Source: a virus
Taxonomy: Duplodnaviria > Heunggongvirae > Uroviricota > Caudoviricetes
Reading direction: 5' to 3' (one strand)
DNA length: 18,562 nucleotides
Virus record (IMG/VR): IMGVR_UViG_3300030021_000030
Location: 1 to 18,562 of that record
Shown piece by piece: positions 1 to 17,973 of the stretch (positions are counted from its first letter, which is position 1; the number at the start of each line of letters is the position of its first letter). A program made the translations under genes and the position numbers. The notes under the pieces are model-generated. The model searched no databases and was not told where the DNA came from. It saw nothing but the letters and a program-made list of their open reading frames with translations.

Positions 1-288
1 TCAATGGTTGGCGTCATTATCTTTTTCTCTTTCTGAACGTGAATATTGCGGTGGACGGTTCATCAGCTGTGGGGCAAGACGTTTTGCCACCTGAAGAATA
101 ACCACCACCGCAGCGGGAAACATGAGCAAAACACCGAGAAAAATCATCAGAATCTGCACTTCTGGCCGAGAAAATGGCTCAGGCAGCGACAGGGAGTCGC
201 TTACCGACAGCAGCGCCACCGCCAGTAGCATCATTCCGATAAATTCCAGTATCAACACGCCTTTAGGCAATTTACCGATCGCGCGCAT
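1..288 (-). CDS. ybjC: Small inner-membrane protein YbjC (DUF1418), 95 aa, complete
   Basis: 95-aa ORF whose sequence I recognise as E. coli YbjC; conserved ybjC-grxA-ybjM-ybjL synteny; stop codon at 1-3. Confidence 0.8.
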   Translation of the reverse strand: MRAIGKLPKGVLILEFIGMMLLAVALLSVSDSLSLPEPFSRPEVQILMIFLGVLLMFPAAVVVILQVAKRLAPQLMNRPPQYSRSEREKDNDANH

Positions 289-447
289 ACGCTTCCCTCT
301 GCAAAGTGAGCCTTCAGTCTAAAACTTTTCACTGTATTGTGTTTAACAGTTATAGCTTTTAGCAATTAATGCAACAGGTTAAACCTACTTTCAGCGAATA
401 CATTTTAGCGTGATCATTACAGGCATAAATCTATGAGGAGAGAAATA

Positions 448-705
448 ATGCAAACCGTTATTTTTGGTCGTTCGGGTTGCCCTTACTGTGTGCGTGCAAA
501 AGATCTGGCTGAGAAATTGAGCAATGAACGCGATGATTTTCAGTATCAGTATGTAGATATTCGTGCGGAAGGGATCACTAAAGAAGATCTACAACAAAAG
601 GCAGGTAAACCCGTAGAAACCGTGCCGCAGATTTTTGTCGATCAGCAACATATCGGCGGCTATACCGATTTTGCTGCATGGGTGAAAGAAAATCTGGACG
701 CCTGA
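448..705 (+). CDS. grxA: Glutaredoxin 1 (85 aa)
   Basis: Translation MQTVIFGRSGCPYCVRAKDL... has the CPYC dithiol active site and glutaredoxin fold signature. Start placed at the second ATG (448), preceded by GAGGAGAG Shine-Dalgarno, rather than the ORF-track start at 433. Confidence 0.9.
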   Translation: MQTVIFGRSGCPYCVRAKDLAEKLSNERDDFQYQYVDIRAEGITKEDLQQKAGKPVETVPQIFVDQQHIGGYTDFAAWVKENLDA

Positions 706-715
706 TCGTCTGACA

Positions 716-747
716 AGCCCTCGCGTTGAGGGCTTTACTGATTTTTT
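716..747 (+). terminator. Putative rho-independent terminator downstream of grxA
   Basis: Inverted repeat agccctc (716-722) / gagggct (728-734) with 5-nt loop, followed by a T-rich stretch (tttttt at 742-747). Overlaps the convergent ybjM stop. Confidence 0.45.
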
Positions 748-1112
748 CTGTGCTGTGGTTTAAACAAACTACTGATAAATAAGAAACACAGTGCCCCCAG
801 CGCACACCAGAACACCGCGCTTAGTAACCATGCCAGCTCTTGCCAGAATGAGCGCGTCGGTGAAAAAAACAGCCGCATAATGAGCATTGAACAGGGTGCC
901 GCCAGCATTGCGCCAAATAGAGGTTTCAGGACTTCTCTACGCTGTGAAAAGAAACTGGCAACTGCTCCAGGAAGAATGAAAAATAGCAAGCCGATTTCAG
1001 GATGCCCGGCAGCCCGAAAAGCGCCTTTCATGTGCGTCGCCAGAAAAAGGCACACCACAATGAAGAGGACAAAACAGCAGATTGCCCCCGCCCAACGTTG
1101 TTTATGTTTCAC
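735..1112 (-). CDS. ybjM: Inner membrane protein YbjM (125 aa)
   Basis: 125-aa hydrophobic ORF matching the E. coli YbjM sequence and position between grxA and ybjL. Confidence 0.8.
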   Translation of the reverse strand: MKHKQRWAGAICCFVLFIVVCLFLATHMKGAFRAAGHPEIGLLFFILPGAVASFFSQRREVLKPLFGAMLAAPCSMLIMRLFFSPTRSFWQELAWLLSAVFWCALGALCFLFISSLFKPQHRKNQ

Positions 1113-1381
1113 TCGTTCCTCCTGACACTGCGTCTATCGAACACATTTTTCGCCAGTGTGGCGTTCAGTAAGATAAAGCCGCTTCGCATTCCATGCTAAT
1201 ATAGGCCAACGCAATTCATATAGCCGTTGATACCTAATGTGATTACACTAGTAAAATATATTGTTACTTTACTATCGTTTAGGTGCGCTGAATGAATCTG
1301 CGCCCTGAATTCTGGTAAAAAACATTATCGTAAATTACCATTTCTTTCAACAGCTTACTAGTAAACAAGAAGTTAGCCTCC

Positions 1382-3067
1382 GTGAATATAAACGTCGCCG
1401 AATTGTTAAATGGGAATTACATTCTGTTATTATTTGTGGTCCTCGCGCTTGGGCTATGTCTCGGAAAGTTACGACTTGGTTCGATCCAACTGGGTAATTC
1501 CATTGGCGTTTTAGTCGTATCGCTGTTATTAGGCCAACAACATTTCAGCATTAACACCGATGCGCTTAATCTTGGCTTTATGCTGTTTATTTTCTGCGTC
1601 GGGGTCGAAGCCGGACCGAACTTTTTTTCCATTTTTTTTCGCGATGGGAAAAATTACCTAATGTTAGCACTGGTGATGGTTGGCAGTGCGCTGGTGATCG
1701 CCTTAGGGTTAGGTAAGCTGTTTGGCTGGGATATTGGCCTGACGGCCGGTATGTTAGCAGGCTCTATGACGTCGACACCGGTTCTGGTCGGTGCTGGCGA
1801 TACACTGCGTCATTTCGGCATGGAAAGCAGGCAGCTCTCACTGGCACTGGATAATCTGAGCCTCGGGTATGCCTTAACCTATTTAATCGGTCTGGTGAGT
1901 TTGATTGTTGGTGCGCGTTACTTGCCGAAATTGCAGCATCAGGACTTACAGACCAGCGCCCAGCAAATCGCCCGCGAACGTGGCCTGGACACTGATGCCA
2001 ACCGTAAGGTTTATTTACCGGTGATCCGCGCCTATCGCGTCGGCCCGGAGCTGGTGGCCTGGACCGACGGCAAAAATCTGCGTGAACTGGGTATTTATCG
2101 ACAAACCGGCTGCTACATTGAACGTATTCGACGTAACGGGATTCTGGCAAATCCAGACGGTGATGCCGTGCTACAAATGGGCGATGAAATAGCGTTGGTA
2201 GGCTATCCCGACGCCCATGCCCGACTCGATCCCAGCTTCCGTAACGGTAAAGAAGTTTTCGATCGTGACCTTCTCGACATGCGTATCGTCACTGAAGAAG
2301 TGGTCGTTAAAAACCATAACGCTGTAGGTAAACGTCTCGCACAACTGAAGTTGACCGATCACGGTTGCTTCCTTAACCGCGTCATTCGTAGCCAGATTGA
2401 GATGCCGATAGATGACAACGTCGTGCTTAACAAAGGTGACGTTTTACAAGTCAGCGGCGATGCCCGCCGCGTAAAAACCATCGCCGATCGCATCGGCTTT
2501 ATCTCGATTCACAGCCAGGTCACTGACCTGCTGGCATTTTGCGCCTTCTTTGTTATTGGGCTGATGATCGGGATGATCACCTTCCAGTTCAGCACATTCA
2601 GTTTCGGCATGGGGAACGCTGCCGGGTTGTTATTCGCCGGAATTATGCTGGGCTTTATGCGTGCTAACCACCCGACCTTCGGTTACATTCCGCAAGGTGC
2701 ATTAAGCATGGTGAAAGAGTTCGGCTTGATGGTGTTTATGGCAGGCGTTGGTCTGAGCGCCGGTAGCGGTATTAATAACGGCCTGGGCGCGATTGGCGGT
2801 CAGATGTTGATTGCCGGATTAATTGTCAGTCTTGTGCCCGTGGTTATCTGTTTCTTGTTCGGTGCTTATGTATTGCGAATGAACCGCGCACTGTTGTTCG
2901 GCGCAATGATGGGCGCACGCACCTGCGCGCCGGCAATGGAGATCATCAGTGATACAGCTCGCAGTAACATCCCTGCGCTGGGCTATGCGGGCACCTACGC
3001 AATCGCCAACGTCCTGCTGACGCTGGCAGGGACAATCATCGTCATGGTATGGCCAGGATTAGGATAA
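1382..3067 (+). CDS. ybjL: Putative transporter YbjL (AAE-family permease with two central TrkA-C/RCK_C domains), 561 aa, GTG start
   Basis: 561-aa ORF beginning [20 protein letters not shown]...; hydrophobic N- and C-terminal halves separated by a soluble region; start codon is GTG at 1382. Confidence 0.9.
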
Positions 3068-3179
3068 AACTGAAGTTGCCCTGAAAATGAAATTTTTTTG
3101 CACAACCGCAGAACTTTTCCGCAGGGCATCAGTCTTAATTAGTGCCACTGCTTTTCTTTGATGTCCCCATTTTGTGGAG

Positions 3180-3225
3180 CCCATCAACCCCGCCATTTCG
3201 GTTCAAGGTTGATGGGTTTTTTGTT
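3180..3225 (+). terminator. Rho-independent terminator downstream of ybjL
   Basis: 10-bp perfect stem cccatcaacc (3180-3189) / ggttgatggg (3207-3216) followed by TTTTTT (3217-3222). Confidence 0.6.
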
Positions 3226-3302
3226 GCCTGAAATTTATGCCTTTTAAAATCATGATGTTAGAAGCACTGTTTTTTAACGATGGCGACAAATTGGCGGCAG
3301 CG

Positions 3303-3521
3303 TCAAAGAGAGAGCGCCACCTGTCCTGATTTCATTGGATGCGGCTGAACCGGATTTGACTCTTTTGGCGTTGCAATCGAACGAACAAAAGTTTCATGGG
3401 TAACAAAAGTATGGCTGCAGTTAATGTTCTGGCACTGGTTGTAACGCTCTTTGGTCAATGAAGATACCTGAAAACTGCTGCGAGTATGGGCGGCACTTCC
3501 ACACAGTGGGCAAATCATCAT
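3303..3521 (-). CDS. ogr: Ogr-family late-gene transcriptional activator (zinc finger), 72 aa
   Basis: MMICPLCGSAAHTRSS...KERYNQCQNINCSHTF: Cys-X2-Cys ... Cys-X4-Cys zinc-binding motif typical of P2 Ogr / P4 Delta. Start moved to the internal Met so the product is 72 aa, the length of P2 Ogr. Confidence 0.85.
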   Translation of the reverse strand: MMICPLCGSAAHTRSSFQVSSLTKERYNQCQNINCSHTFVTHETFVRSIATPKESNPVQPHPMKSGQVALSL

Positions 3522-3611
3522 TTTTCGAGTTCTCCCCATTTTTGCTAAATTCACAATAATGATACCGCATTATTCCATTTTGAAAACTTAAAAGTTCTCC
3601 ATTGCGAAGAA

Positions 3612-4712
3612 TCATTCCATTTCGAAATCATCAATCTTCACTTCAAGCTCCAGACTGGTCGTAAAACCGTTATCCGGGCTGACGGTATGTGTCAGAGTCG
3701 TAATGGTCCATTCCGCATCATCTATCGGCTGTTTAAAACCACTGACCTTCACAGGCATTTCCGTGTAGAGATCTGCCCGCCCTTCCGCCAGTTGTAGCGA
3801 GAATGACGCAACGCCGCGTTGCAGGCGTTCCCACTGCATTTTTGCCGCTCGTTCGGCGTTGCTCCGGTTGGCATAAGTGCGATTAAGTACCAGCACGTTT
3901 TCATCCGTCCCCACCAGGTAATCGCCCTGCTTCGCTTCCGGCTCTTTCTTCTGCTTCTTAGTCCTGTGCTTACGCTTCACCGTAGTGCTTTCTTTCTTCG
4001 CGGGTTCGCGGGTATGCAACCAGCTGGCAATTACCCCCGTGTAGGCTCCGCGATCTGCCAGGGTAAAGCGGTGACTGTCGCCGTCCTTGCGTGTGATAGT
4101 GATCACCGGCAGTGGTTTACCAGTGGCGCTTTTGCCCTGTCCCTGCCGGATGAATAACAGATTGCCATTTTTCACCGACGCGATGGCACCGTACTGGCGC
4201 GCCAGCCGCATCAGAAAACTGCCGTCACTCTCATTAGTCTGGTCTATATGCTCCACGGGCTTATCCGACAGGTCTTTACCCAGTGCCATCTTCAGCTTGT
4301 GACGCGCGGCTATTTCCTTCACCACTTCCCCGACAGTGGTCTTGTGCCACGATTTTTCACGGCGGGTATTCAGCGTTTCCCTAAAATCAGCACTTCGCGC
4401 CCGGATAGTCAGGCGATCCGGTGCGCCAGTGTGTTCAATCTCGTCCACCGTGAATGCCCCTTTCGGGAAAAGCGGCTGCCCCTTCCAGCCCAGCGCCAGC
4501 GTAATGACCGCACCACGGCGCGGCAGCACGATTTTTCCGTCGGCGTCGTCCAGCTCCAGATCAAGCTGGTCCGCTTCAAAGCCCCGGTTATCCGTCAGCG
4601 TAAGCCCCATCAGGCGGTTGACCAGCACAGTGGTGATATCCTTGCCTTCAATACTGATGCTGAATGCTGGAGTTTTGTTGCCTTTGTTAAGCAGTTCAGA
4701 GCTGAAATTCAC
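3612..4712 (-). CDS. D: P2 gpD-like tail protein (late control gene D family)
   Basis: 366-aa ORF with the LTDNRGFEADQLDLELDDADG and WAV-type motifs characteristic of gpD; lies between U and ogr as in P2. Confidence 0.9.
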   Translation of the reverse strand: MNFSSELLNKGNKTPAFSISIEGKDITTVLVNRLMGLTLTDNRGFEADQLDLELDDADGKIVLPRRGAVITLALGWKGQPLFPKGAFTVDEIEHTGAPDRLTIRARSADFRETLNTRREKSWHKTTVGEVVKEIAARHKLKMALGKDLSDKPVEHIDQTNESDGSFLMRLARQYGAIASVKNGNLLFIRQGQGKSATGKPLPVITITRKDGDSHRFTLADRGAYTGVIASWLHTREPAKKESTTVKRKHRTKKQKKEPEAKQGDYLVGTDENVLVLNRTYANRSNAERAAKMQWERLQRGVASFSLQLAEGRADLYTEMPVKVSGFKQPIDDAEWTITTLTHTVSPDNGFTTSLELEVKIDDFEME

Positions 4713-5194
4713 GACAGCAGCCCTCCCACCGTTTTACTGATATCGCTTAAGGCAGACGTTGCCGTATCCTGCAAATTATTCAGCTGCGCACTGAGATCAC
4801 CGAACATATCGGACAGGGATTCATCCACCCGTTTGAGCGACAGGGTGAACTCAATCCGGCGCGGCATACCATCGCGGAAAAACTCCGTTTTAGTCTGATT
4901 CAGTCCCTCAATCACATACATGCCGTAAATCGTGCCGCTGCCTTCAATCAGGGGCCATGCTTTTCCCTGTTCTGCCATCTGCTCCAGAGCCAGCAACGAC
5001 AGCCTGCCGCCCGTTATCTCTGGCATAAGAACACCAGAAAGCGTCAGCATGTCGTTGTCCGGTCCCAGAAACTGCGTGGACGGACGTCGGTTGACCCGGC
5101 TGTTTGCCGCATGTCGCCAGCTGCGTTGATACTGCAGTTCCTGATACGGCACAGTGCGCAGCATAAACACGTACAATCCCAGCACCATCATCAT
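4709..5194 (-). CDS. U: P2 gpU-like tail protein
   Basis: 161-aa ORF in the P2 position between T and D; 4-nt ATGA overlaps with both neighbours. Confidence 0.85.
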   Translation of the reverse strand: MMMVLGLYVFMLRTVPYQELQYQRSWRHAANSRVNRRPSTQFLGPDNDMLTLSGVLMPEITGGRLSLLALEQMAEQGKAWPLIEGSGTIYGMYVIEGLNQTKTEFFRDGMPRRIEFTLSLKRVDESLSDMFGDLSAQLNNLQDTATSALSDISKTVGGLLS

Positions 5195-8100
5195 GCGTCG
5201 TATCCCCCCTGATCGCTGTAGTTACTCCTGGCTTTTGCCTTCAGCCTGCGTTCACGTTCATCAAGCTGACGTGCCACCTCCCGCGCAATATCCTGCGCAC
5301 TTTGTCCTGGCTGCGTCTGAATGATGATCTGCATCGGTGCCTCAATCCGCTGAACGGGCGGCACAGTGGCTGCACGACTCACCATCGCTTCGTCGCCTTT
5401 CGCGGGAAGTGCCAAAGGGTGCAACGGTGGAAACTCTGCTGGCGCGGCAGCAACGCCCATCATTCCGGCAACAACGGCAGCCAGTGCAGCTGTATTTCTC
5501 CGGCTGGTCACATTTGCCGGGCCGTTAACAATTTCCGGCCCGTTTTCACCGACGATGCCAAACTGCCCGCGCGGGATATACCCGCCGCTGTCATACATCC
5601 CCGCAAAGCCATATCCCCATGACGGAAAACCACCCGATGGCATCATCACTTTACCGTCTGCATTCACCGTCGCAGGTTGCTGACGCGTCACGCTTTCCGG
5701 CAGTTTCGCCTTTGCAGCTTCTTTACTGACAATGCCGAGTTTATCCAGCAACCAGGAAACACCGGATTTCAGGGAGTCCAGCGGATGCATGACCATATTC
5801 AGCCCTTCCGCCAGTGCCTCCCCGAATCGTCGCCCCATTGCCGCTGCGCTCTGCAGTTCGGCAGAGGTCGACTTAACAGGCGTCAGCAGATTAGTAAACC
5901 AGCCCCACAGCGCCTGTACTTTGTCGCCAATCCACTGAAACACAGGCTTAAGTGGTTCGAATGCAGCACTGATGGGACCTGCCGCCGCTTTGAATCCTTC
6001 CACCACGCCACCGAGAAATGCGGTGATGGGTTGCCAGTATTTCCAGACAACCAGCGCTACGCCTGCCAGTGCAGTAACCACAAGACCTATCGGACTGAGC
6101 AGAGCACCTAACAGACCAGATATGGCATACAGGGCAACGCGCAGCATCGCCAGCGGACCGGATGCCAGCACACGAAGCACCGTGCCTGCGGAGGCCAGTC
6201 CACCGCGCAGTACCGCCAGAGGATTCATAAACATCACAGCAACAGCACGTAAACCGGATAATCCAGACCGCAAAAGTGCAACCGGCGCACCTGCTACAGT
6301 TTTCAGGACATTTCCCGTCAGTGATGCCGTGCGGCGCAAAGACGACAACGGCGCAGTAAGTAAACCTGCGGCGTTGCCCGATGAAGCAAGCCCGCGTCGC
6401 AGCAGTGCCAGTGGTGCGCAAGCTAACCAGGACAACGCGCTGCTGGTTCGTGTTACTGCTGCCGTAACGGAAGGTAACGTTTTGATACCCAGCACAGCAG
6501 CCAACACCACAGCCAGGGTGCCGAGGCCCACAGTAACAGCAGCCACAACCGCGGCTACTTTCATCAGTGTGCCCGTCAGTTCAGGGTTAGCTTCCACCCA
6601 GCGACGCAACGCCCCCGTGATGCTTTTCACCGTGTACAGAATATCCATCAGCGGCTGGCGCAGCGTTTCGCCCAGGCTGCTGAAGGTGTTCTGCGCTCCG
6701 GTTTTGACCAGCAACCACTGCGCAGAAAGTGAGTCCTTGTTAATGTCGGATTCTTTCTGCATCGAACCGAGCGCATCATTGCCCGCTGTCAGTTTTAGCT
6801 GGCGCTGCAGTTCCGGCAGGTTGTTTGCCAGTTTCGCCGCATCATCGCCAAACTCTTTACCAAACAACATGGTCATGGCAGACAGGCGCTTATCCTGCGG
6901 CAGTGCGTTCACCTTCTCCAGTACGCGCTGGATAGTTCCCATCGCATCCTTCGTCATCTGCTTTTCAATCACTTCAGGATTGAGTTTCAGCAGATTCATT
7001 CCTTCAAAGAAACTCTTGCTTTGCATGGTCGCAATGGACAATTCACGCACCATCGCGTTGGCAGCACTGGCAGCGACCTCCGGCGCAGCCCCCAGTGTCA
7101 GGAAGGTGGAACCCAGCGCCGCCGCTTTACGATAATCCAGACGATCAGCCACACCGCCCAGGCGTTGCATGACATCAATGATGTCTGCCCCTTTCGACAT
7201 AGCGTTATCATCCAGATAGTTCAGCGCATCACCGAGCTGTTCAATATTGCGGGTTGGTATTTTGTAGAGCTGGGCGATTTTCCCCAGACTTTCTGACAGT
7301 TCATCCGCTGGCAGCTCAAAGGCTGTTGCCGCCTTTGCTGCCGTACTGGCGAAGGCCAGCAGGTCACGTTTCTGGTCCTCCCAGCTGTCGTCAGGGTTTG
7401 CCACATTCATGCGCGCACCACCTTCAACCAGTGCGGCGAAGTCCACAGCACCGTTTTCCATTGGCAGCTGTTCACTGGCAGCTTTGATGGCATCCTGCAT
7501 TTCGTAAAAACGCGCAGTGCGGTTGCCATTATCGTCACGCAGACCATTGACCTGCTTTGCCACACCTTTCATGGCATCTTCCATGCTGGTATAGCTTTTT
7601 ACCGCCGCCATCACTGGCGCGCCCATTGCCAGCCCTGCAGCCGTGGTGGTGGCTCCGGCTCCTGCGATGCGATCGCGCACTTCAAGCCGTCTTGAGTATT
7701 GTTCTCTGGCAGCCTTCATCCGTGCCTGTTGTTCACCCAGACGTTTAAGTGCTTTTTGCTGGCCCTCCAGTGCCTGACGAGTTTCTTCGGCATTTTTCTT
7801 AAGTTCTCGCTGGGCACTACTGAGTTGTCTGGTATCAATCCCTGATTCTTTAAGTGCCTGACGTTGTCTCTGGACCGCCCCCAACAAGCCGTTATAGGTC
7901 TGCTGAAGTTCCTGTACTCGTGTTTTGGCCTGACTGAATAACTTTGCCTGCGCGGCGGTTGGCCTGTTAGTGGCAGCAAATTGTGTGGCGAGTTTTGCCG
8001 CCTCTTCGCGGGCTGCGTTCAGGTTGTTGGCTGTTATGGCTAGTTGCGAGCGCGTCTTGCGAAATTCATCAATTCTGCCAGCCTGCTTATTCAGTTCTTT

Positions 8101-8229
8101 GAGGCTGTTTCGGGTATTCTGAATTGCGCCAGCCAGCTCTTTCGAACTGGCCTGTGCAGCACGGAATGGGCGGGTGAGTTTGTCAACCGCATTAAGAATG
8201 ACCTGCAGGCGCAGGTTATTATCACTCAT
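5191..8229 (-). CDS. T: Tail tape-measure protein (gpT-like), 1012 aa
   Basis: Very long ORF with an N-terminal coiled-coil/Ala-rich region and central hydrophobic Gly/Ala repeats, in the canonical position after E/E'. Its ATG overlaps the E' stop (ATGAGTGA). Confidence 0.9.
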   Translation of the reverse strand: MSDNNLRLQVILNAVDKLTRPFRAAQASSKELAGAIQNTRNSLKELNKQAGRIDEFRKTRSQLAITANNLNAAREEAAKLATQFAATNRPTAAQAKLFSQAKTRVQELQQTYNGLLGAVQRQRQALKESGIDTRQLSSAQRELKKNAEETRQALEGQQKALKRLGEQQARMKAAREQYSRRLEVRDRIAGAGATTTAAGLAMGAPVMAAVKSYTSMEDAMKGVAKQVNGLRDDNGNRTARFYEMQDAIKAASEQLPMENGAVDFAALVEGGARMNVANPDDSWEDQKRDLLAFASTAAKAATAFELPADELSESLGKIAQLYKIPTRNIEQLGDALNYLDDNAMSKGADIIDVMQRLGGVADRLDYRKAAALGSTFLTLGAAPEVAASAANAMVRELSIATMQSKSFFEGMNLLKLNPEVIEKQMTKDAMGTIQRVLEKVNALPQDKRLSAMTMLFGKEFGDDAAKLANNLPELQRQLKLTAGNDALGSMQKESDINKDSLSAQWLLVKTGAQNTFSSLGETLRQPLMDILYTVKSITGALRRWVEANPELTGTLMKVAAVVAAVTVGLGTLAVVLAAVLGIKTLPSVTAAVTRTSSALSWLACAPLALLRRGLASSGNAAGLLTAPLSSLRRTASLTGNVLKTVAGAPVALLRSGLSGLRAVAVMFMNPLAVLRGGLASAGTVLRVLASGPLAMLRVALYAISGLLGALLSPIGLVVTALAGVALVVWKYWQPITAFLGGVVEGFKAAAGPISAAFEPLKPVFQWIGDKVQALWGWFTNLLTPVKSTSAELQSAAAMGRRFGEALAEGLNMVMHPLDSLKSGVSWLLDKLGIVSKEAAKAKLPESVTRQQPATVNADGKVMMPSGGFPSWGYGFAGMYDSGGYIPRGQFGIVGENGPEIVNGPANVTSRRNTAALAAVVAGMMGVAAAPAEFPPLHPLALPAKGDEAMVSRAATVPPVQRIEAPMQIIIQTQPGQSAQDIAREVARQLDERERRLKAKARSNYSDQGGYDA

Positions 8230-8658
8230 CGTTGGCCCCGCTTCTCTGAATCGCTTTATACCGCCATTCCAGCACTTCGGTCAGCGGCATAACGTCAGTA
8301 ACGGATGGCGGCCAGTGAAAGATGGTGGCGATATCAGCCACCAGATCGTCAACCGTCAGGCTGTCGGTAAACCGGCAAGCACCGACTTCTTCAACAAAAA
8401 AGTGACAACCTCAACCGACATGGCAGTGAGATCTGCCGGGTCCATCTCTGCAATTTCCTGTGCAGTCAGTGCCGGACTGGAGATGCGGGGGATCACGGTC
8501 ATCATCGCGTTTACATCCATATCCATAATGGCCTGCAGGCGTGTACCGCGCAGCGCACCGGACTGCGGTTTACGCAGCACAATTTCGGTGATTTCTGTTT
8601 TACCGCGCTTGATGGGGGTATCCAGTTGAATGGTCTTTTCAGTCTGCTTATCGCTCAT
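8222..8658 (-). CDS. E: Tail assembly chaperone gpE and the frameshifted fusion product gpE+E' (E alone is 8356..8658; E' extension is in the -1 frame, 8222..8395)
   Basis: 100-aa gpE-like ORF; the T_TTT_TTG slippery heptamer sits at codons F87-L88. Manual translation of the -1 frame from the slip site gives a 59-codon open extension (VEEVGACRFTDSLTVDDLVADIATIFHWPPSVTDVMPLTEVLEWRYKAIQRSGANDE) ending at a TGA that overlaps the T start codon. Confidence 0.8.
8395..8401 (-). other. Programmed -1 ribosomal frameshift slippery site T_TTT_TTG (E/E')
   Basis: Minus-strand sequence ACT TTT TTG read directly from plus-strand caaaaaa (8395-8401); same heptamer as the P2 E/E' site. Confidence 0.75.
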
Positions 8659-8712
8659 TTTGCTGTCCTGTCAATTGGGTTCTGGCGCGGTATCCCGCGC
8701 CGTTCAGATATA

Positions 8713-9228
8713 TCAGAGGCCGAGGGCGTTGCGGTGCGCTTCCATCAGGTCCACACCGTCCACAATTTCCACCATGTTGATAAGGTCCACTTCATAGAGC
8801 ACCTCACCATTGATGGTCAGCTTCGCGTAGCTGTTGGTACTGGTCACTTTGGTGGTGTTGCTTTCGCCCGTCTTCCACTCGCCGGAATCCACTTCTTTGT
8901 GACGTCCACGCACGACAAGCTCCACGGCCTGCACTTCCCCGGTATCGTCACGCTGAATAGAGCCGGTAAAGCGCAGCTGGATGCCATCCACCGTGGCTTT
9001 ACCCATCTGTTTAAACAGCAGCAATTCAGTACCACCAATGGAAAATTCTGTGTCCAGCGCACTGTCATCAAGCCCCAGATCCACATCAACTGCACCAGGC
9101 ATTCCGCCGCCGCGATACTTCTCATATTTGCGGGTGAATTTCGGCAGCGTCAGCGACTCAACGATCCCCTGCCAGTTGTTCCCGTCGTTAAACAGGTTCA
9201 GGTGTTTTAATTTGCGTGGTAAAGCCAT
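8713..9228 (-). CDS. FII: Major tail tube protein (gpFII-like)
   Basis: 171-aa ORF beginning MALPRKLKHLNLF..., recognisable as the P2 FII tail tube family; follows FI. Confidence 0.9.
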   Translation of the reverse strand: MALPRKLKHLNLFNDGNNWQGIVESLTLPKFTRKYEKYRGGGMPGAVDVDLGLDDSALDTEFSIGGTELLLFKQMGKATVDGIQLRFTGSIQRDDTGEVQAVELVVRGRHKEVDSGEWKTGESNTTKVTSTNSYAKLTINGEVLYEVDLINMVEIVDGVDLMEAHRNALGL

Positions 9229-9237
9229 GTTGTCCCC

Positions 9238-10410
9238 TTACGCGCTGACCTGGCTGGCGAAATTCACCAGGTACTGATCGGTGATGCGCTGACGCAGCAT
9301 CAGGTTTTCAAGTGGCGGCACTGGCGTGTAGTCGTAGTCGATGGTGAGTTTTCCGGCTTTCAGCGTGTCTTTGTCGTTCACCGACTCATCCAGCCAGCAA
9401 TCACCACCAATGAGATAGCCCTGACTGACCAGGCTGCGCATTTTGGCGCGGATACCTTCGATAATGTCGCGGGCCAGCGACGGGTTAAGCGGTTTATCCA
9501 CCGCCCACATGTGTGCTTCTGCCATCGTGTCCATCAGCACCTGCGCCGTGCGGGTGTAGTTTTCGAAGGCAAAGAGCGGGTCATCACTCAGACAGCGGGA
9601 ACCCCAGAAGCGGAAACCGTCTTTACGCACAAGCGTAGTGACGTCGTTCTGGTTCAGCAGACCTGCATCGGTTGCCGGGTCCTGCAGATCCCAGAACACA
9701 TCTGCAGAAATTCCGGTGACACCGTTCACGCCCACGTTGGACAGGCTTTTGTGCCATCCGGTCTGCTCGTCAATTTTGGCGCGCAGACCAAGCGCACGGG
9801 CGGTGGCATATGCCGTTGCTTCGGCATTCAGCACCGTGTCCCAGCCAGTAAAGTCAGGCCAGATCAGCATCCCTTCGCGCTGGCTGAAGTTTTCGCGGTA
9901 AGTGATCGCCTCCTGCACTGTCTTGCAGCCATACGCTGACAGGTAAGCAAATCCACGCAGGCTTTGCGCCACGCTCAGCAACTCAGTAGCTACCGCCTTG
10001 GTGTCGTGGCCTGGCACGCCGAGAATGCGCGGTTTAACGCCGAGCTGTGACTGGGCAGATAACAGGGCTTTCATACCTGTTTTTTTACCTTCAGCAGTCA
10101 CTGCGCCGATGATATTGGTCGTGGTTTCGTCTTCCGTTTCACCCTGCGGCACACGCACAACAATGGTCACGGGTTTTGCCTGGTCAGCGATGGCATCCAG
10201 CGAACGGGCCAGAGTACCTGACTCACCCGCTTTACCGCTGGCAGTCAGCACATCAGTGATCAGCACGGGTTTATTAAGAGGAAACATTTTTGCATCGGCA
10301 TCATCGCCCGTGCAGACCATACCCACGATGGCGGTGCTCACCGTGGTAATAGATCGGGTGCCTTCGTTGACTTCAACAACGCGCACCCCGTGGTGGTAAT
10401 CCTGAGCCAT
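9238..10410 (-). CDS. FI: Contractile tail sheath protein (gpFI-like)
   Basis: 390-aa ORF ([19 protein letters not shown]...[11 protein letters not shown]...[20 protein letters not shown]) closely resembling P2 FI along its whole length. Confidence 0.9.
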
Positions 10411-10486
10411 AGTGGCGAACCTCCTGATTGGATTAGGCTTCGCCCTATGTTGAAGTGATTGTGCCTGACAAACAGCTAAGCGCAGT

Positions 10487-10504
10487 TGTGTCGTTATTCA
10501 CACA
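10487..10504 (-). promoter_or_regulatory. Candidate Ogr-dependent late promoter activator site (TGT-N12-ACA) upstream of FI
   Basis: TGTgtcgttattcacACA dyad in the 142-bp gap between the invertase stop and the FI start. P2/P4 late promoters carry TGT-N12-ACA centred near -55. Confidence 0.4.
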
Positions 10505-10552
10505 AAATGACGGTATTTGTCTACTTGCAGGGATAATCAAAATAATGCTGAT

Positions 10553-11119
10553 TCAGGGGGATTCATTGCTCTTATTTGCCGGAAATTTTCTATAAATGGT
10601 AGAAACGCCTACATCAAAAATCAGTGCAATACGCTGTCTTGATTCTCCGGCCTCGAGTAAACGCCCAATCTGTGCCCACTGTTCGGTGGTCAACTTAGGA
10701 CGGCGTCCACCTACTCTGCCTTTGGCACGAGCTGCAGCCAGCCCTGCCATGGTACGTTCAACTATCAGTTCGCGTTCCATTTCAGCCATGGCACCCATGA
10801 CATGAAAAAAGAAACGGCCCATTGGGGTGCTGGTATCAATACTGTCAGTCAGACTTCGGAAATTCACGCCACGCTGACGCAACTCTTCTATCAGCGTAAC
10901 AAGATGCCGCATACTGCGCCCCAACCTGTCCAGCTTCCAGACAACCAGAGTGTCTCCTGCCGATAGTGTCCTGAGCAGTTTTTTAAGCCCCGGTCTGTCG
11001 GACTTAGTGCCACTGATTTTATCCTCAAAAATCCGCTCACATCCCGCGCAGTTCAGTGCATTACGTTGCAAATCGGTGTTCTGGTCATTTGTTGACACGC
11101 GTACATAGCCAATAAGCAT
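10553..11119 (-). CDS. Serine recombinase, DNA invertase of the Gin/Hin/Pin/Cin family
   Basis: Translation from the internal Met: MLIGYVRVSTNDQNTDLQ...VVWKLDRLGRSM...FFFHVMGAMAEMERELIVERT...C-terminal HTH. The catalytic Ser is in the YVRVSTNDQ motif. GGGA Shine-Dalgarno lies upstream of the ATG at 11119. Confidence 0.85.
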   Translation of the reverse strand: MLIGYVRVSTNDQNTDLQRNALNCAGCERIFEDKISGTKSDRPGLKKLLRTLSAGDTLVVWKLDRLGRSMRHLVTLIEELRQRGVNFRSLTDSIDTSTPMGRFFFHVMGAMAEMERELIVERTMAGLAAARAKGRVGGRRPKLTTEQWAQIGRLLEAGESRQRIALIFDVGVSTIYRKFPANKSNESP

Positions 11120-11174
11120 GATCAATCCCCTGAATAAAAACCGTGGATGATGCCAGTTAGCCATTATCTCTGCA

Positions 11175-11200
11175 TTTTCATAAACGTTGGTTTGGGAGAA
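11175..11200. repeat. gix/hix-like 26-bp invertase crossover site (invertase-proximal)
   Basis: TTTTCATAAACGTTGGTTTGGGAGAA fits the Hin/Gin site consensus TTnTCnnAAACCnnGGTTTnnGAnAA and is 20/26 identical to the reverse complement of the site at 12275-12300. Confidence 0.6.
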
Positions 11201-11545
11201 GCGGCGAAAAGGGGTGTGGGCACAGGAGATAATCAGATACCGGATATGGGAGCATTCGCTTCTGGTTCGGGATGGTTCAGGCTACCAGGTGGATATATTG
11301 TTCAGTTTGGCACTTTTGCAGGAAACACGACCCGCTTTATCAGTGGACACTTCCCTATACCATTCCCTAATCAGCCGATGGTTTCAGTCAGTGTTATGTC
11401 TGATGCCGTTCAGTCAGACCCGTCGATTCCTGCCCCGCAGGTTTTGTCTGTAAATTTTGAACATATCAGTAATTCAGCGTGGCGTGTGGCAACCAGTGAT
11501 ATCTCACAGCAATACAGATTCAGTTATATTTCGATAGGACGGTAG
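11201..11545 (+). CDS. Promoterless alternative tail-fibre C-terminal segment (Sv'-like), expressed only after inversion
   Basis: Open frame runs through the gix-like site and encodes ...GWFRLPGGYIVQFGT..., parallel to the current H C-terminus ...GYFELPGGLLLQWGH... There is no plausible independent start; the ORF-track Met at 11147 lies inside the invertase gene region. Confidence 0.6.
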   Translation, partial: AAKRGVGTGDNQIPDMGAFASGSGWFRLPGGYIVQFGTFAGNTTRFISGHFPIPFPNQPMVSVSVMSDAVQSDPSIPAPQVLSVNFEHISNSAWRVATSDISQQYRFSYISIGR

Positions 11546-11547
11546 AA

Positions 11548-11973
11548 ATGCAGAAATATATTTTCAGTGCCGATAAAAATGCGTTTTTCCCTGTGGAGCT
11601 TAAAATCGCTTATCAGGAATCCGGCGAATGGCCCGATGATGGAATCGAAATTGACGACACTGTTGCCGCCGAATTTATGAAGGAAGCACCAGAAGGAAAA
11701 TACAGAGGTGTCATCGACGGAATGCCAGCATGGATTGATATTCCACCACCAACTCATGAGGAACAAATTGCTGCAGCCGAATTGGAAAAGCAGCAATTGA
11801 TTAATCAGGTCAACGAATACATAAACAGTAAGCAGTGGCCTGGCAAATCGGTGCTTGGACGCCTGAAAGATGATGAATTAACGCAGTACAATTTATGGCT
11901 GGATTATCTTGATGCGCTGGAAGCGGTGGACGTATCCAGCGCTCCAGATATTGTTTGGCCCTCCTCAACCTAA
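11548..11973 (+). CDS. Tail fibre assembly chaperone (Tfa/gpG/Mu U family)
   Basis: 141-aa ORF immediately after the Sv' segment (3-nt gap) with the conserved C-terminal Tfa-like region ...QYNLWLDYLDALEAV...; opposite strand to H. Confidence 0.75.
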   Translation: MQKYIFSADKNAFFPVELKIAYQESGEWPDDGIEIDDTVAAEFMKEAPEGKYRGVIDGMPAWIDIPPPTHEEQIAAAELEKQQLINQVNEYINSKQWPGKSVLGRLKDDELTQYNLWLDYLDALEAVDVSSAPDIVWPSST

Positions 11974-12001
11974 ATAAAAAGCCGCTCTACGCGGCTTTCT
12001 C

Positions 12002-13336
12002 TTACATCCCGAGTGCAAAATACGTATAGCTGTCAATATTGTTTACCGTGCCGTTTCCATTCCATCCATAAAGGCTAAAGCTAGTTAAGGTATAATTAGA
12101 TGACGTCACATACCGACCATCAGTTGTGATTTTATGCGGCAGTACAATGAACGGAGTGACGTTAAACGACTTCTTAAACTGTATAATGGCACTTGACGCA
12201 TGAATCGAGCCGTGCCCCCATTGCAGCAGCAATCCTCCCGGTAATTCAAAGTACCCATCAGCCTCCAGTAACCGCTCTCCAAAACCAAGGTATGTGAGAA
12301 GACCAGTTACATCCTTTCCACTCAAATTAGTCAGCGTATTGTCCAGCGGTTGTTTACCTGCCAGTGCATTAAGCATTGTCGTGGCAAAGTTCGGGTCATT
12401 CCCCAGCGCCGCCGCCAGTTCGTTCAGTGTATCCAGTGCCGCAGGTGCAGAACCCACCATTGCCGCAATCGCCGATTTCACAAATGCCGTGGTGGCAATT
12501 TGTGTATTGTTGACCGACTGTGCCGCAGTAGGTGCGGTTGGCGTTCCGGTGAGTGCCGGACTCGACAGCGGCGCTTTCAGTGCCAGCGCATTGTTAATGG
12601 TGGTACTGAATTTCGGATCATTGTTAATGGCTGCGGCTATTTCTTTCAGCGTGTCCAGCGTGGCTGGCGCACCATTAATAAGAGCCGTCAGAGCCGCCTG
12701 AACAAACTCGGTGGTCGCAATCTGCGTGGTGTTATTCCCTGCTGCTGGCGTTGGCGCTTTGGGTGTCCCGGTAAACGTCGGACTTTCTTTGGGTGCATAC
12801 TGTGAATGCGGGTCCGGTGCGGCAAGATGTTTTGCCATCAGGTCATCCACGTACACCTTCAACTCCAGTGCTTTGTCATCCACATACTTGCGGGTTGCCA
12901 GCACTACAGCAGGGTCGATTTTCAGGGTGATATTGTCCGTGCTGCTGGTTATCAGCACCATGCGCACGGTCTGGGTGCGCCCGCTGCCTTCAGCCAGTTG
13001 CGGCTTATAGCTTTCCGGGCAGTTGCCCACGGCAATCAATGCCCCGGACTCATCAAACAGGCCCACTTCACGTATCCACCAACCACCCTCGTTTTCAGGG
13101 ATCACCTGTTCAGCAATAATCTGGCTGCTGTTCTGCGGGTCGATATAAAGCATATTCAGCGCAGCCCGGCGTTTCTCATTTACCAGTGCCGTCTGCTTTG
13201 CGTCCGGCGTTGGCAATACTCCGCCGCCATCGCCCACCGCCATATGAGTAATTTTTAGCGGCACACCGAGCGCGGCGGCGCTGGCAAGTTTCGCCGCGCC
13301 AATATCCGTTAGCAGGGTATAAAATTTTGTGCTCAT
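12002..13336 (-). CDS. H: Tail fibre protein (gpH-like): constant N-terminal part plus the currently fused variable C-terminal tip
   Basis: 444-aa ORF with the conserved P2/Mu/P1 tail-fibre N-terminus (MSTKFYTLLTDIGAAKLASAAALG...) and repeated TQIATTEFV / TQIATTAFV collar motifs. The last ~90 codons lie inside the invertible segment. Confidence 0.9.
   Translation of the reverse strand: MSTKFYTLLTDIGAAKLASAAALGVPLKITHMAVGDGGGVLPTPDAKQTALVNEKRRAALNMLYIDPQNSSQIIAEQVIPENEGGWWIREVGLFDESGALIAVGNCPESYKPQLAEGSGRTQTVRMVLITSSTDNITLKIDPAVVLATRKYVDDKALELKVYVDDLMAKHLAAPDPHSQYAPKESPTFTGTPKAPTPAAGNNTTQIATTEFVQAALTALINGAPATLDTLKEIAAAINNDPKFSTTINNALALKAPLSSPALTGTPTAPTAAQSVNNTQIATTAFVKSAIAAMVGSAPAALDTLNELAAALGNDPNFATTMLNALAGKQPLDNTLTNLSGKDVTGLLTYLGFGERLLEADGYFELPGGLLLQWGHGSIHASSAIIQFKKSFNVTPFIVLPHKITTDGRYVTSSNYTLTSFSLYGWNGNGTVNNIDSYTYFALGM
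12275..12300. repeat. gix/hix-like 26-bp invertase crossover site inside H
   Basis: CTCTCCAAAACCAAGGTATGTGAGAA; its reverse complement TTCTCACATACCTTGGTTTTGGAGAG encodes LTYLGFGE of H and matches the site at 11175-11200 in inverted orientation. Confidence 0.6.
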
Positions 13337-15872: not shown

Positions 15873-17129
15873 ATGTATAAAATTCAAAGCGTCACAATTA
15901 ATGGCTTTTGGCAGCGATTAAACTGTTCCTGCTCATTTAATGATGATGTAAATATTATTATAGGCCGAAATGGCACGGGTAAAACAACCTTTATGAACCT
16001 TCTGCACTCAATATTATCCCTTGATTTGGACAGTATTAACAATGCTGATTTCAATAGTGCCGAAATAAAACTTAAAGATAAAAAAAAGACAAAAACAATC
16101 AAAGTCAAAAAACTTGAAAGCGATACATCTCCATTTTCCAAAATAGAATATCAGCTTTCATCTAAAAAACACACAATTCGTTTATTTAACACTGATGATA
16201 GAAGAATATCTCTTAGTTATAGACGTAGAGTGCATGATGAAACAGAAGAACTAAGAACAGAACTAGCAAAACTAGTCTCGCTTTCTTCTTTATCTGTTTA
16301 CAGATTAAGAAATAGTGATGATTTTGAAGTTAAAGATAAATATGGCTCTCGTTTTATCAACCCTGTTGACTATAAGTTATCAGAATTAATACAGGAACTT
16401 ACAAAATATCAACTTGAACTATCCCAGAAAGCCAGAGATATCGCATTAGAACTGCAAAAAGAGGTTCTGGCATCAATACTTTATAGCAAGGAAGATATGG
16501 AGAATCCTGCTTACAACATTAACTTTAACAAAGAGGAAGAAAAACAAAACCTCCTTAATGCATACACACAGTTAAATGCTATTGATCAAAACATTCGTAA
16601 AAAAATCAGCTTTCATGTTGAAACAATTAATAATACCATTTCGGAATTAAAGAATAAAAGTGAAAGTGGCTTTGATATTCGTTCGATCGAAGCATTGAGA
16701 AAAACACAAAAAATAATCAAAATGTCATTAACTTCAAAAGAGAAAACATCAAAAATATTTTCTCCAATAGAACAATTCTTAAGCATACTAAGAAATTTTA
16801 TCACCGATAAAGAATTTCATTTTCAATCGGGATTGTTAGTCATAAATAACACCTATGGGCCAATAGTTTTAGAAAGTTTATCTTCTGGTGAAAAACAACT
16901 GCTAATTTTATTCATTGAGACCCTCTTACAAAGAGGGCAACAATATATTTTCCTAACTGATGAGCCTGAGCTTTCCTTACATATTCAATGGCAAAGAAAT
17001 ATTATCCCTGCCATAAAAAAATTAAATCCTAATGCACAAATTATTGCTGCAACCCATTCTCCTGAAGTTGCATCTAAATATAAAAACGCCATTTTCAATA
17101 TGGAGAGATTAGTCAATGCTAATCAATGA
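15873..17129 (+). CDS. ABC/SMC-like ATPase (AAA_15/AAA_21-type), 418 aa; candidate AriA-like component of a PARIS-type defence system
   Basis: Walker A GRNGTGKTT (aa 31-39), ABC signature LSSGEKQ (aa 336-342), Walker B YIFLTDEPE (aa 358-366), H-loop AATHS (aa 392-396). A Lys/Glu-rich, probably coiled-coil insertion separates Walker A from the signature. The region is strongly AT-rich relative to the flanking phage. Confidence 0.8.
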   Translation: MYKIQSVTINGFWQRLNCSCSFNDDVNIIIGRNGTGKTTFMNLLHSILSLDLDSINNADFNSAEIKLKDKKKTKTIKVKKLESDTSPFSKIEYQLSSKKHTIRLFNTDDRRISLSYRRRVHDETEELRTELAKLVSLSSLSVYRLRNSDDFEVKDKYGSRFINPVDYKLSELIQELTKYQLELSQKARDIALELQKEVLASILYSKEDMENPAYNINFNKEEEKQNLLNAYTQLNAIDQNIRKKISFHVETINNTISELKNKSESGFDIRSIEALRKTQKIIKMSLTSKEKTSKIFSPIEQFLSILRNFITDKEFHFQSGLLVINNTYGPIVLESLSSGEKQLLILFIETLLQRGQQYIFLTDEPELSLHIQWQRNIIPAIKKLNPNAQIIAATHSPEVASKYKNAIFNMERLVNANQ

Positions 17130-17973
17130 TTCTAATGCAGAAAACTTTTCTTGGTCTAATGAAGCGGAAAATGTGATCAGTTTATTTTATGATGCTGATA
17201 TTATGGTCTATGTTGAAGGTGAAGATGACATTGCTTTTTGGGAAATAATTTTTAAAAAAAATGGTCGTTTTAATGTAGAAGTTCAAGATGTTGGTGGATG
17301 TGAAGCTTTACAACCATATATCGAAAAAATAACCTCAGGAGAAATAAACGCCATAGTTGCCAGAGATTCGGATCTAAACCATTTTTCTGACAACATAGTA
17401 AAGCATACAAATATTATTTACACAAAGGGATATTCAATAGAAAACACAATCATTGATGAAAAAATCATATCACACATACTCAAAAACACAGGCCGTTTTT
17501 GCACGAAAAAAATGCAGGAAATAGATGTGGAAAATTGGCTTTCTAATTTCTATAGCAACATTGAGAACTTAATAATACTAGATATTCACAATCATTTAAA
17601 TAAATTAGGATGCTCCGTAATTGGTGATTCCTGTGATCGTTTTATGCAATCAAGAAATTCATACAATATATGCAAGGAAAAAATAGATGAATATATCAAT
17701 AGACTACCTGAATCGTTTACTACTAATGGTTTAGCAGAAAAAAACAACATTCAATTCCCAGAAAATACATCTATAAATCATTGGGTGAAAGGGCACTTTC
17801 TTTTCTCAGCATCATTAAGATTTATAACAAACTTTTTGGCATCCATCAATAAAAAAACCTCTATATCCAAGGATAGTTTTTACGCAAACATCTTGTCTGC
17901 ATTTGAGATTTTTTATACAGAAGAACATGCTGATTATAGTTATTACAATCAAAAGATAGGGGCCATCACATAA
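17116..17973 (+). CDS. TOPRIM/DUF4435-like putative nuclease, 285 aa; candidate AriB-like effector
   Basis: N-terminal VYVEGEDD (conserved Glu, aa 34) and ARDSD (DxD, aa 84-86) resemble TOPRIM metal-binding motifs of OLD/DUF4435 proteins. The start overlaps the ATPase stop by 14 nt, with a GAGAGA Shine-Dalgarno inside the upstream gene. Confidence 0.7.
   Translation: MLINDSNAENFSWSNEAENVISLFYDADIMVYVEGEDDIAFWEIIFKKNGRFNVEVQDVGGCEALQPYIEKITSGEINAIVARDSDLNHFSDNIVKHTNIIYTKGYSIENTIIDEKIISHILKNTGRFCTKKMQEIDVENWLSNFYSNIENLIILDIHNHLNKLGCSVIGDSCDRFMQSRNSYNICKEKIDEYINRLPESFTTNGLAEKNNIQFPENTSINHWVKGHFLFSASLRFITNFLASINKKTSISKDSFYANILSAFEIFYTEEHADYSYYNQKIGAIT

Follow-up and report, generated by a model that had tools for sequence, protein, structure and literature searches.

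A Pin/Gin-type inversion system predicted to exchange the receptor-binding tip of the tail fiber in a P2-like Escherichia coli prophage

Judged from sequence, the 18,562-nt stretch of DNA analyzed here (the window) contains a genuine Pin/Gin-type flip-switch of a P2-like E. coli prophage, which consists of a pair of inverted crossover sites and an invertase gene and is predicted to swap the receptor-binding tip of the tail-fiber protein H. The switch is a clear-cut case of a textbook mechanism rather than a new mechanism. Its one unusual detail is an asymmetry between the alternative tips: tip B is accompanied by an assembly-chaperone gene and tip A is not. The features of the locus are the following.

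10553–11119, minus strand: Pin/Gin-family serine DNA invertase of 188 aa, which reads away from the segment (Pfam Resolvase, 6e-53, and HTH_7)
11035–11097, minus strand: putative Fis-dependent recombinational enhancer in the 5′ end of the invertase gene (by homology only)
11120–11174, minus strand: leader of the invertase gene, between site L and the start codon (four-way DNA alignment)
11175–11200, no strand assigned: crossover site L, proximal to the invertase, with core TT at 11187–11188
11201–11545, plus strand: tip B, the silent alternative tip, with a gp53-like C-terminal domain (Pfam Gp53-like_C, 5e-9)
11548–11973, plus strand: tail-fiber assembly chaperone gene, 141 aa, coupled to tip B (Pfam Caudo_TAP, 1e-33)
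11976–12000, no strand assigned: bidirectional intrinsic terminator hairpin between two convergent units (terminator scan)
12002–12274, minus strand: tip A, the currently expressed tip of about 90 aa, with a gp53-like C-terminal domain (Pfam Gp53-like_C, 2e-6)
12275–12300, no strand assigned: crossover site R, inside gene H, with core AA at 12287–12288
12301–13336, minus strand: constant N-terminal part of the P2-type tail-fiber gene H, about 345 aa (Pfam Phage_tail_fib, 5.9e-65)

Site L reads TTTTCATAAACG TT GGTTTGGGAGAA and site R reads CTCTCCAAAACC AA GGTATGTGAGAA. Together they form an inverted repeat, in which 11175–11199 is 80% complementary to 12276–12300 over 25 nt; compared as 26-mers, the two agree at 20 of 26 positions (77%). 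Such a repeat is unremarkable alone, because other pairs of 70–80% are present within the same 3 kb, and its weight comes from the fit to the crossover pattern shared by hix, gix, cix, and pix sites. Only L and R match this pattern (TTCTCNNAAACCWWGGTTTNNGAGAA, with up to three mismatches) in the 18.5-kb window, and 0.00 matches are expected by chance (200 shuffles). Each consists of two imperfect inverted half-sites of 12 bp around a 2-bp core. Their half-site profile is common to the gix, cix, pix, and EPEC sites, and the reverse complement of site L is identical at all 26 positions to the proven crossover site located by pinE of the e14 element (NC_000913, 1209605–1209630). The original prediction of two inverted 26-bp sites of hix/gix type is thus borne out, and alignment with the Hin/Gin-family crossover sites, which had been set beforehand as a check that could refute it, places both sites within that family. 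Translation likewise agrees with the proposed reading frames: site R lies inside H, where it encodes LTYLGFGE, and site L opens a plus-strand frame that starts with FINVGLGE and continues to ...GWFRLPGG.... The TT and AA cores stand in inverted orientation, which is compatible with inversion only. No third crossover site was found within 6 kb at up to seven mismatches or window-wide at up to three. A shufflon-like or multiple-inversion system, which has at least three sites and more than two arrangements (as in p15B Min or a three-site EPEC P2 locus), was rejected, since just two sites are present.

The gene next to the segment, which had been proposed to encode a serine invertase, indeed encodes a 188-aa enzyme of the Pin/Gin subfamily. 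It starts at 11119 (MLIGYVRVST, as also annotated by PGAP), 55 bp from site L, and an upstream ATG at 11164 is not the real start. The protein is 86% identical to PinE of e14, about 75% identical to Gin over its full length, and 76% identical to Cin, and it matches the Gin structure 3UJ3 over residues 1–184 (E 2e-93). Its open reading frame is intact and contains the catalytic Ser9 within YVRVST. The protein thus conforms to the family plan of a small serine recombinase (about 185–195 aa) that has its catalytic domain at the N-terminus, the catalytic serine near residue 9–10, and an HTH at the C-terminus. In the leader, the blocks TGGCAT(C/G)AT and CTTTT are conserved in e14, Mu, and an EPEC P2 prophage.

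Several features are consistent with control of the invertase by the host protein Fis. Residues K46, K47, and R50, together with the QIGRL motif in helix 1 of the DNA-binding domain, occupy positions equivalent to the Fis/enhancer contacts of Hin; we take the numbering to be offset by one between the two proteins. An enhancer of this kind is expected to lie within the invertase gene, toward its 5′ end, with two Fis sites about 47–48 bp apart and a distance of about 100 bp to the nearest crossover site, judged in part by the positions in Hin. Here, two Fis-like 15-mers, TGTCAACAAATGACC and GCGCGGGATGTGAGC, are centered at nt 30 and 78 of the gene (about 11090 and 11042 in the window), a spacing of 48 bp, at a distance of about 97 bp from the site L core. 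By a crude score they are weak matches (9–10 of 13). In alignments they coincide with the corresponding positions of Mu gin and P1 cin; coding constraint on this stretch confounds the conservation. The contacts described for Hin and conserved in invertases are K47, K/R48, and K/R51 as well as Q151, R154, and L155, and the geometry of the two 15-mers, although these are weak and lie in a protein-coding stretch, agrees with the account of Fis/enhancer control given for Hin in the same work (PMC3798978). By analogy, inversion may depend on Fis, the putative enhancer, and negative supercoiling.

H occupies its usual place among genes that follow the P2 order V-W-J-I-H. The H protein shows two similar blocks, each of about 55 aa; at the DNA level, no direct repeats were found in the constant part of the gene. 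In the present orientation, H ends in tip A, which has no chaperone gene downstream and is followed directly by the terminator (fold of −18.9 kcal/mol, z = −5.2). Tip A is, to judge by dN/dS values of 0.16–0.29 against its homologues, under purifying selection. Tip B lacks a start codon of its own, and the chaperone gene starts 2 nt past its stop codon. The earlier description of this frame as a promoterless paralogue of the tail-fiber tip holds, as the sigma-70 scan gave no promoter signal above chance for the silent cassette and both tips pass the Gp53-like_C cutoff. When the two tip sequences were compared with the PDB, the search returned noise alone (E > 0.4).

Evidence for inversion comes from the predicted product and from related genomes. 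When 11187–12288 is flipped in silico, H is joined in frame to tip B, which gives an open product of 468 aa in place of the present 444 aa, with the chaperone gene then following; both products are annotated in natural genomes. The flipped 468-aa protein occurs verbatim in 31 public contigs and the 444-aa form of the window in 34. At the DNA level, complete E. coli genomes that cover at least 80% of the query include 22 records in the window orientation and 26 in the flipped one. CP167342.1 (L017) has the orientation of the window, L014 and L021 (CP099020.1) are flipped, and apart from this the three sequences do not differ over 3001 nt. Genomes one silent-region SNP away from the window are likewise found in both orientations. 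Between flipped and unflipped genomes, the half-sites are reciprocally swapped, which brackets the crossover to site positions 13–17. Tip A DNA of 100% identity is joined to H in four genomes and silent in three, and tip B is fused to H in the flipped genomes. A further locus, L020, is a diverged relative. The inversion of about 1.1 kb that had been proposed to exchange the C-terminal tip of H is therefore found as a natural locus with its natural protein. Inversion in P2-like E. coli prophages has previously been demonstrated by experiment (PMC4272514), and the segment presumably flips in this particular strain as well.

Taken together, we consider it very probable that a Pin/Gin-type invertase inverts the 1,102-bp segment and thereby gives rise to particles with two different predicted receptor-binding tips. 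The invertase would bind both 26-bp sites, most likely together with host Fis on the enhancer in the 5′ end of its gene, and would cut at the central dinucleotides 11187–11188 and 12287–12288 to invert the DNA between them. In the present orientation, H would end in tip A and run straight into the terminator. After inversion, H would continue in frame into tip B and the chaperone gene, and transcription would meet the other face of the terminator. A population of lysogens would then release particles with either tip, and the two tips presumably confer different host ranges.

The closest characterized relative is the P segment of e14 in E. coli K-12, as indicated by the 86% identity of the invertases and the identical proximal site. 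The layout is also the same, with a site, a leader of about 55 bp, an invertase reading away from the segment, and a crossover inside the tail-fiber open reading frame. The e14 segment inverts in culture (PMC4272514; PMC12529663), and its inversion end-points are given in Table S1 of PMC4272514. The e14 element, however, is lambdoid and defective, and its segment of 1.8 kb holds two tip-plus-chaperone pairs (stfP/tfaP and stfE/tfaE), whereas the window has a P2-like late operon and a 1.1-kb segment with one such pair and one tip without a chaperone. In the P2-like prophages of EPEC E2348/69, an invertible segment occupies the same position, between the tail-fiber gene and the sheath gene FI, and its inversion was shown by sequencing clonal cultures (Goldberg et al, 2014, PMC4272514). 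The gene order is alike (tip, chaperone, chaperone′, gp53-like tip′, invertase, sheath; L009), and the proximal site is 1 nt off site L, but the invertase is just 77% identical and the segment of about 1.9 kb holds two chaperone genes. At a second EPEC locus, three sites allow four states, compared with the two sites of the window. The Fin invertase of Fels-2 in Salmonella belongs to a further case among P2-like invertible tail-fiber loci.

More distant systems share the logic of the switch. The Mu G segment has an invertase of about 75% identity (Gin), 26-bp sites with the same half-site pattern, a site-to-gene spacing of 54 bp compared with 55 bp here, and an enhancer position that aligns inside the invertase gene. 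It also joins a constant N-terminus to alternative C-termini. It differs in its gix core (GA/TC instead of AA/TT), its 3-kb length, its symmetric Sv-U/Sv′-U′ arrangement, and its phage backbone. The P1 C segment is served by Cin, of the same subfamily, and its cix core is TT as here. The P1 layout differs in that cin is placed on the opposite side and the C segment has inverted repeats of 0.6 kb. Hin of the Salmonella H segment is also of this subfamily, but it flips a flagellin promoter and not a coding C-terminus. The parallel that had been drawn with Mu G, P1 C, and e14 P holds in that a constant N-terminus is joined in frame to either of two C-termini. With Mu G and P1 C it holds only in part, since an assembly-chaperone gene accompanies a single one of the two tips here.

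This asymmetry extends beyond the window. Most P2-like relatives contain two chaperone genes, and tip A without a chaperone is also found in L010, in L011, and in Mu-like contexts. A tblastn search with tip A against 50,697 phage records returned no match. When the phage records were searched with the DNA of the whole segment, tip A was never found, and tip B with its chaperone was present in about 20 P2-like phages. Because tip A is chaperone-less, under purifying selection, portable between P2-like and Mu-like prophages, and without a counterpart in the isolated phages searched, its state might not amount to a second host range. H would then toggle between tip B, which is assisted by a chaperone, and the minimal tip A, the latter being, for example, a self-folding tip of a new type or a receptor-blocking state like StfE2 of e14 that serves the prophage. 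We regard this extended reading as rather doubtful.

A related alternative accepts the inversion but assigns it a main role other than phage host range, such that one state is non-infective or serves the host, for example as a receptor-blocking fiber fragment. The lack of a chaperone gene for tip A and its absence from the isolated phages in the collection would fit, as would the PARIS defense cassette carried by the same prophage. There is also a precedent in e14, where Pin-driven inversion is reported to create a fusion, StfE2, that blocks T2 adsorption (PMC12529663). This explanation nevertheless appears unlikely: the full P2 late-gene order is kept around H, H is a structural, baseplate-attached fiber with Phage_tail_fib at its N-terminus, and tip A, conserved by selection, is fused to full-length H in many genomes. 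Host range is, moreover, the established function of the inversion systems of Mu, P1, and carotovoricin (see references in PMC4272514).

Alternatively, the locus could be a frozen relic, with an invertible architecture but a silent or inactive invertase and an orientation fixed with tip A expressed. Locked close relatives do exist, in that L010 has a truncated invertase and EC596 has lost the invertase and site L in a 7.5-kb deletion. In addition, no convincing promoter of the invertase gene was found in a simple sigma-70 scan, in which counts were at chance level. Against this, the invertase of the window is an intact reading frame with the catalytic serine and the Fis-contact residues named in PMC3798978, both orientations occur among genomes that differ from it by one silent-region SNP, and the flipped protein, in its exact form, is found as often as the unflipped form. 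Further invertases of the Pin family in the same cell could also work on the segment in trans, in the way that PinQ acts on e14 (PMC12529663). We therefore consider a frozen locus very unlikely. Hardly credible is an origin of the two orientations by RecA recombination between short inverted repeats or by horizontal cassette replacement: the same cassette does recur in unrelated P2-like and Mu-like backbones, so that cassettes are exchanged horizontally, but for RecA to recombine them efficiently, repeats of just 26 bp at 77% identity are too short and too divergent. The exchange point also lies within the 5 bp around the core of a canonical invertase site, and the flanks on both sides are identical in flipped and unflipped genomes, so that no replacement took place.

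Invertase-driven exchange of the tips has practical consequences, chiefly for annotation. The “gp53-like domain-containing protein” annotated by PGAP at 11246–11545 is a silent cassette and not a gene, and differences in orientation between assemblies reflect phase variation and not divergence. Two forms of the tail-fiber protein exist for this prophage, a point to consider when host range or tailocin specificity is predicted. As site L matches its e14 counterpart exactly, invertases of the Pin family from other prophages in the same cell probably flip the segment in trans. Something new might be learned only from tip A, which lacks a chaperone and could reveal how a fiber tip reaches its fold when no dedicated assembly protein accompanies it.

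As judged from its sequence, the locus belongs to the Gin/Cin/Pin/Hin family by every feature tested. The prophage in the window, a P2-like element of Escherichia coli inserted beside ybjL, is represented by its late (tail) region, with gene calls based on Pfam matches and on the PGAP annotation of a 100%-identical region in E. coli strain LZYWN_4. On the minus strand, the genes run leftwards in the order V, W, J, I, H, the invertible feature, sheath FI, tube FII, E/E', tape measure T, U, D, and ogr. The feature comprises an invertase gene and two crossover sites, L and R, which enclose a silent tail-fiber tip (tip B) and the tip now fused to H (tip A):

10553-11119, minus: serine recombinase gene (188 aa)
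11175-11200: site L, TTTTCATAAACG TT GGTTTGGGAGAA
open through site L, ending at 11545, plus: tip B, gp53-like C-terminal domain (FINVGLGE...)
11548-11973, plus: Caudo_TAP assembly-chaperone gene (141 aa), starting 2 nt after the end of tip B
11976-12000: strong hairpin with U-tracts on both strands, following the chaperone gene
12002-12274, minus: tip A, gp53-like, last ~90 codons of H
12275-12300: site R, CTCTCCAAAACC AA GGTATGTGAGAA

The two sites form an inverted repeat exactly where the original prediction had placed it, with 20/26 identities as 26-mers. On its own, such a repeat would not stand out, as these 3 kb contain several 70-80% pairs of about this length. The invertase crossover-site pattern TTCTCNNAAACCWWGGTTTNNGAGAA matches only sites L and R in the 18.5 kb at ≤3 mismatches (0.00 expected; 200 shuffles). 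It was then compared with sites taken from sequence records (Mu gixL and gixR, one P1 cix, two e14 sites, and those of an EPEC P2-like prophage), and the half-site profile T-T-C-T-C-n-n-A-A-A-C-C is common to all of these and to sites L and R, which bears out the proposed fit to the family consensus. The reverse complement of site L equals the e14 site adjoining pinE at 26/26 positions.

The invertase shows 86% identity to PinE and 74-77% to Gin, Cin, and the EPEC P2 invertase; its match to the sequence of the Gin crystal structure has an E-value of 2e-93. A longer ORF from 11164 was rejected because PGAP starts at the MLIGYVRVST methionine, from which Gin and PinE also align. As predicted, the gene adjoins the segment: it starts 55 bp from site L, compared with a gixR-gin gap of 54 bp in Mu, and reads away from the segment. 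The leader between site and start (11120-11174, minus) contains the blocks TGGCAT(C/G)AT and CTTTT, which e14, Mu, and the EPEC P2 prophage share with the window while the surrounding bases diverge, and which could serve the invertase as a promoter or regulatory element. A recombinational enhancer inside the gene is no more than probable, because the match to the Fis consensus is weak, the DNA concerned codes for the protein's most conserved part, and the placement of the Hin Fis sites used for comparison is provisional. The candidate elements are Fis-like 15-mers centered at nt 30 (TGTCAACAAATGACC) and nt 78 (GCGCGGGATGTGAGC) of this protein-coding stretch, spaced at 48 bp and ~97 bp from the site L core. 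GATTTG...GTAATG lies between the two, and they line up with the corresponding elements in Mu gin and P1 cin. According to PMC3798978, the two Fis sites of the hin enhancer are separated by 47 bp that include ATTTA and TAATG and lie ~100 bp from hixL, and Hin K47, K/R48, K/R51, Q151, R154, and L155 are specific to Fis-dependent invertases; at equivalent positions, the window invertase has K46, K47, R50, and QIGRL.

The plus-strand frame encoding FINVGLGE does remain open through site L and encode a tip. Tips A and B are distant paralogues, in keeping with the proposal; aligned, they share 22 identities over 92 columns and the motif G(Y/W)F(E/R)LPGG. PGAP calls silent tip B a free-standing "gp53-like domain-containing protein" from an internal ATG (11246-11545, plus; likewise in two comparison loci, L002 and L024), and tip A in flipped genomes; these are promoterless C-terminal cassettes, not genes. 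In the constant part of H (12350-12800, minus; residues ~200-320), two similar ~55-aa blocks, NTTQIATTEFVQAALTALINGAPATLDTLKEIAAAINNDPKFSTTINNALALKAP and NNTQIATTAFVKSAIAAMVGSAPAALDTLNELAAALGNDPNFATTMLNALAGKQP, are visible in translation, although no DNA-level direct repeat was found there.

When 11187-12288 is reverse-complemented in silico, H stays open and yields a 468-aa protein with tip B at its C-terminus. That such a product exists is shown by three independent lines of evidence. Searches of complete E. coli genomes with a 3-kb query gave, at ≥80% coverage, 22 records for the window orientation and 26 for the synthetic flipped one, with strains H2 and APEC O18 colinear and gap-free to the latter. 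The predicted protein, joining the window's own H allele to its own tip B, is present verbatim on 31 public contigs (the 444-aa H of the window is on 34). Finally, three of the loci found through a chaperone-protein look-up, one in the window orientation (L017, CP167342.1) and two flipped (L014 and L021; L021 is CP099020.1), share the same single nucleotide difference (10789) and are otherwise identical to the window over 3001 nt, segment orientation aside. In four complete genomes, DNA 100% identical to tip A is fused to H; in three, it is silent. In the loci from the chaperone look-up, the inner half-sites GGTTTGGGAGAA and CTCTCCAAAACC move with the segment and the outer ones remain with the flanks, as predicted; the positions at which the two sites differ confine the exchange to site positions 13-17, core dinucleotide included. 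RecA recombination or cassette replacement would not leave the reciprocal half-site exchange apparent here, which is what a serine invertase does. The analysis supports the original prediction of a Gin/Hin-type segment whose ~1.1-kb inversion would swap the H tip.

The closest characterized relative is the e14 Pin/P-segment. Invertible tail-fiber segments are already on record at this location in P2-like prophages. Goldberg et al (PMC4272514) found e14, a Mu prophage, and two P2-like prophages of EPEC E2348/69 each in both orientations within clonal cultures; one of the EPEC E2348/69 P2-like loci (L009) has the gene order of the window's common relatives. A 2024 preprint describes invertases with inverted neighbors in the same P2 hotspot, and 19 phage records carry an invertase 95-99% identical to the window's (e.g., phage KP12, with the same layout). 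The mechanism is textbook, experiments in E. coli have already demonstrated this class of locus, and many public genomes contain the exact sequence.

In a close relative, strain EC596 (L024, NZ_CP156718.1), a ~7.5-kb deletion that starts within gene D and stops shortly after entering tip B (window-equivalent about 3730-11232) has taken out U, T, E, FII, FI, the invertase, and site L, so that the prophage is defective and locked in the tip-A orientation. L010 has an invertase cut down to 108 nt. Four loci (L016, L019, L022, and L023) carry the same tip B/chaperone/terminator/tip A cassette in baseplate modules of Mu-like prophages (Mu Gp45-48), with the chaperone protein identical, a very short constant fiber part (whole fibers 191-215 aa), and an adjoining 187-aa invertase in some and none in others. 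GCA_027278115.1 has three cassette copies in one genome.

At the left prophage boundary (1-3600), host ybjC, grxA, ybjM, and ybjL precede prophage ogr (3303-3554); ybjL lies at 1382-3067 in the window and 1343-3028 in LZYWN_4, a 39-bp offset that implies a small indel in one genome relative to the other. A two-gene cassette on the opposite strand (15873-17973, plus) has been inserted between baseplate V and tail S. Its products are an AAA_15/AAA_21 ATPase (418 aa) and a DUF4435 protein (285 aa), whose best PADLOC matches, AriA (7.6e-39) and AriB (4.1e-22), identify the cassette as a PARIS anti-phage system in a P2 hotspot. It is present in EC596 and missing from the otherwise identical LZYWN_4 prophage.

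The usual P2-like version (L001, L005) has a ~1.83-kb segment with two tip-plus-chaperone pairs; in the window, tip A alone replaces one pair, hence the 1.1-kb segment. Tip B with its chaperone occurs at ~95% identity in ~20 P2-like phages, and tip A had no match in the phage collection. The chaperone-less design is recurrent rather than damage: tip A without a chaperone, followed by the terminator, occurs in 31 of 5,426 complete genomes, has different partner cassettes in L010 and L011, is found in Mu-like prophage backbones with the same inner and different outer half-sites, and has a dN/dS of 0.16-0.29. A role outside host range is conceivable, since Pin-driven inversion in e14 reportedly yields a fusion that blocks T2 adsorption (PMC12529663), but we consider it unlikely here. 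The asymmetric, chaperone-less tip A is the sole loose end of the system: it may fold unaided, borrow a chaperone, or serve another purpose.
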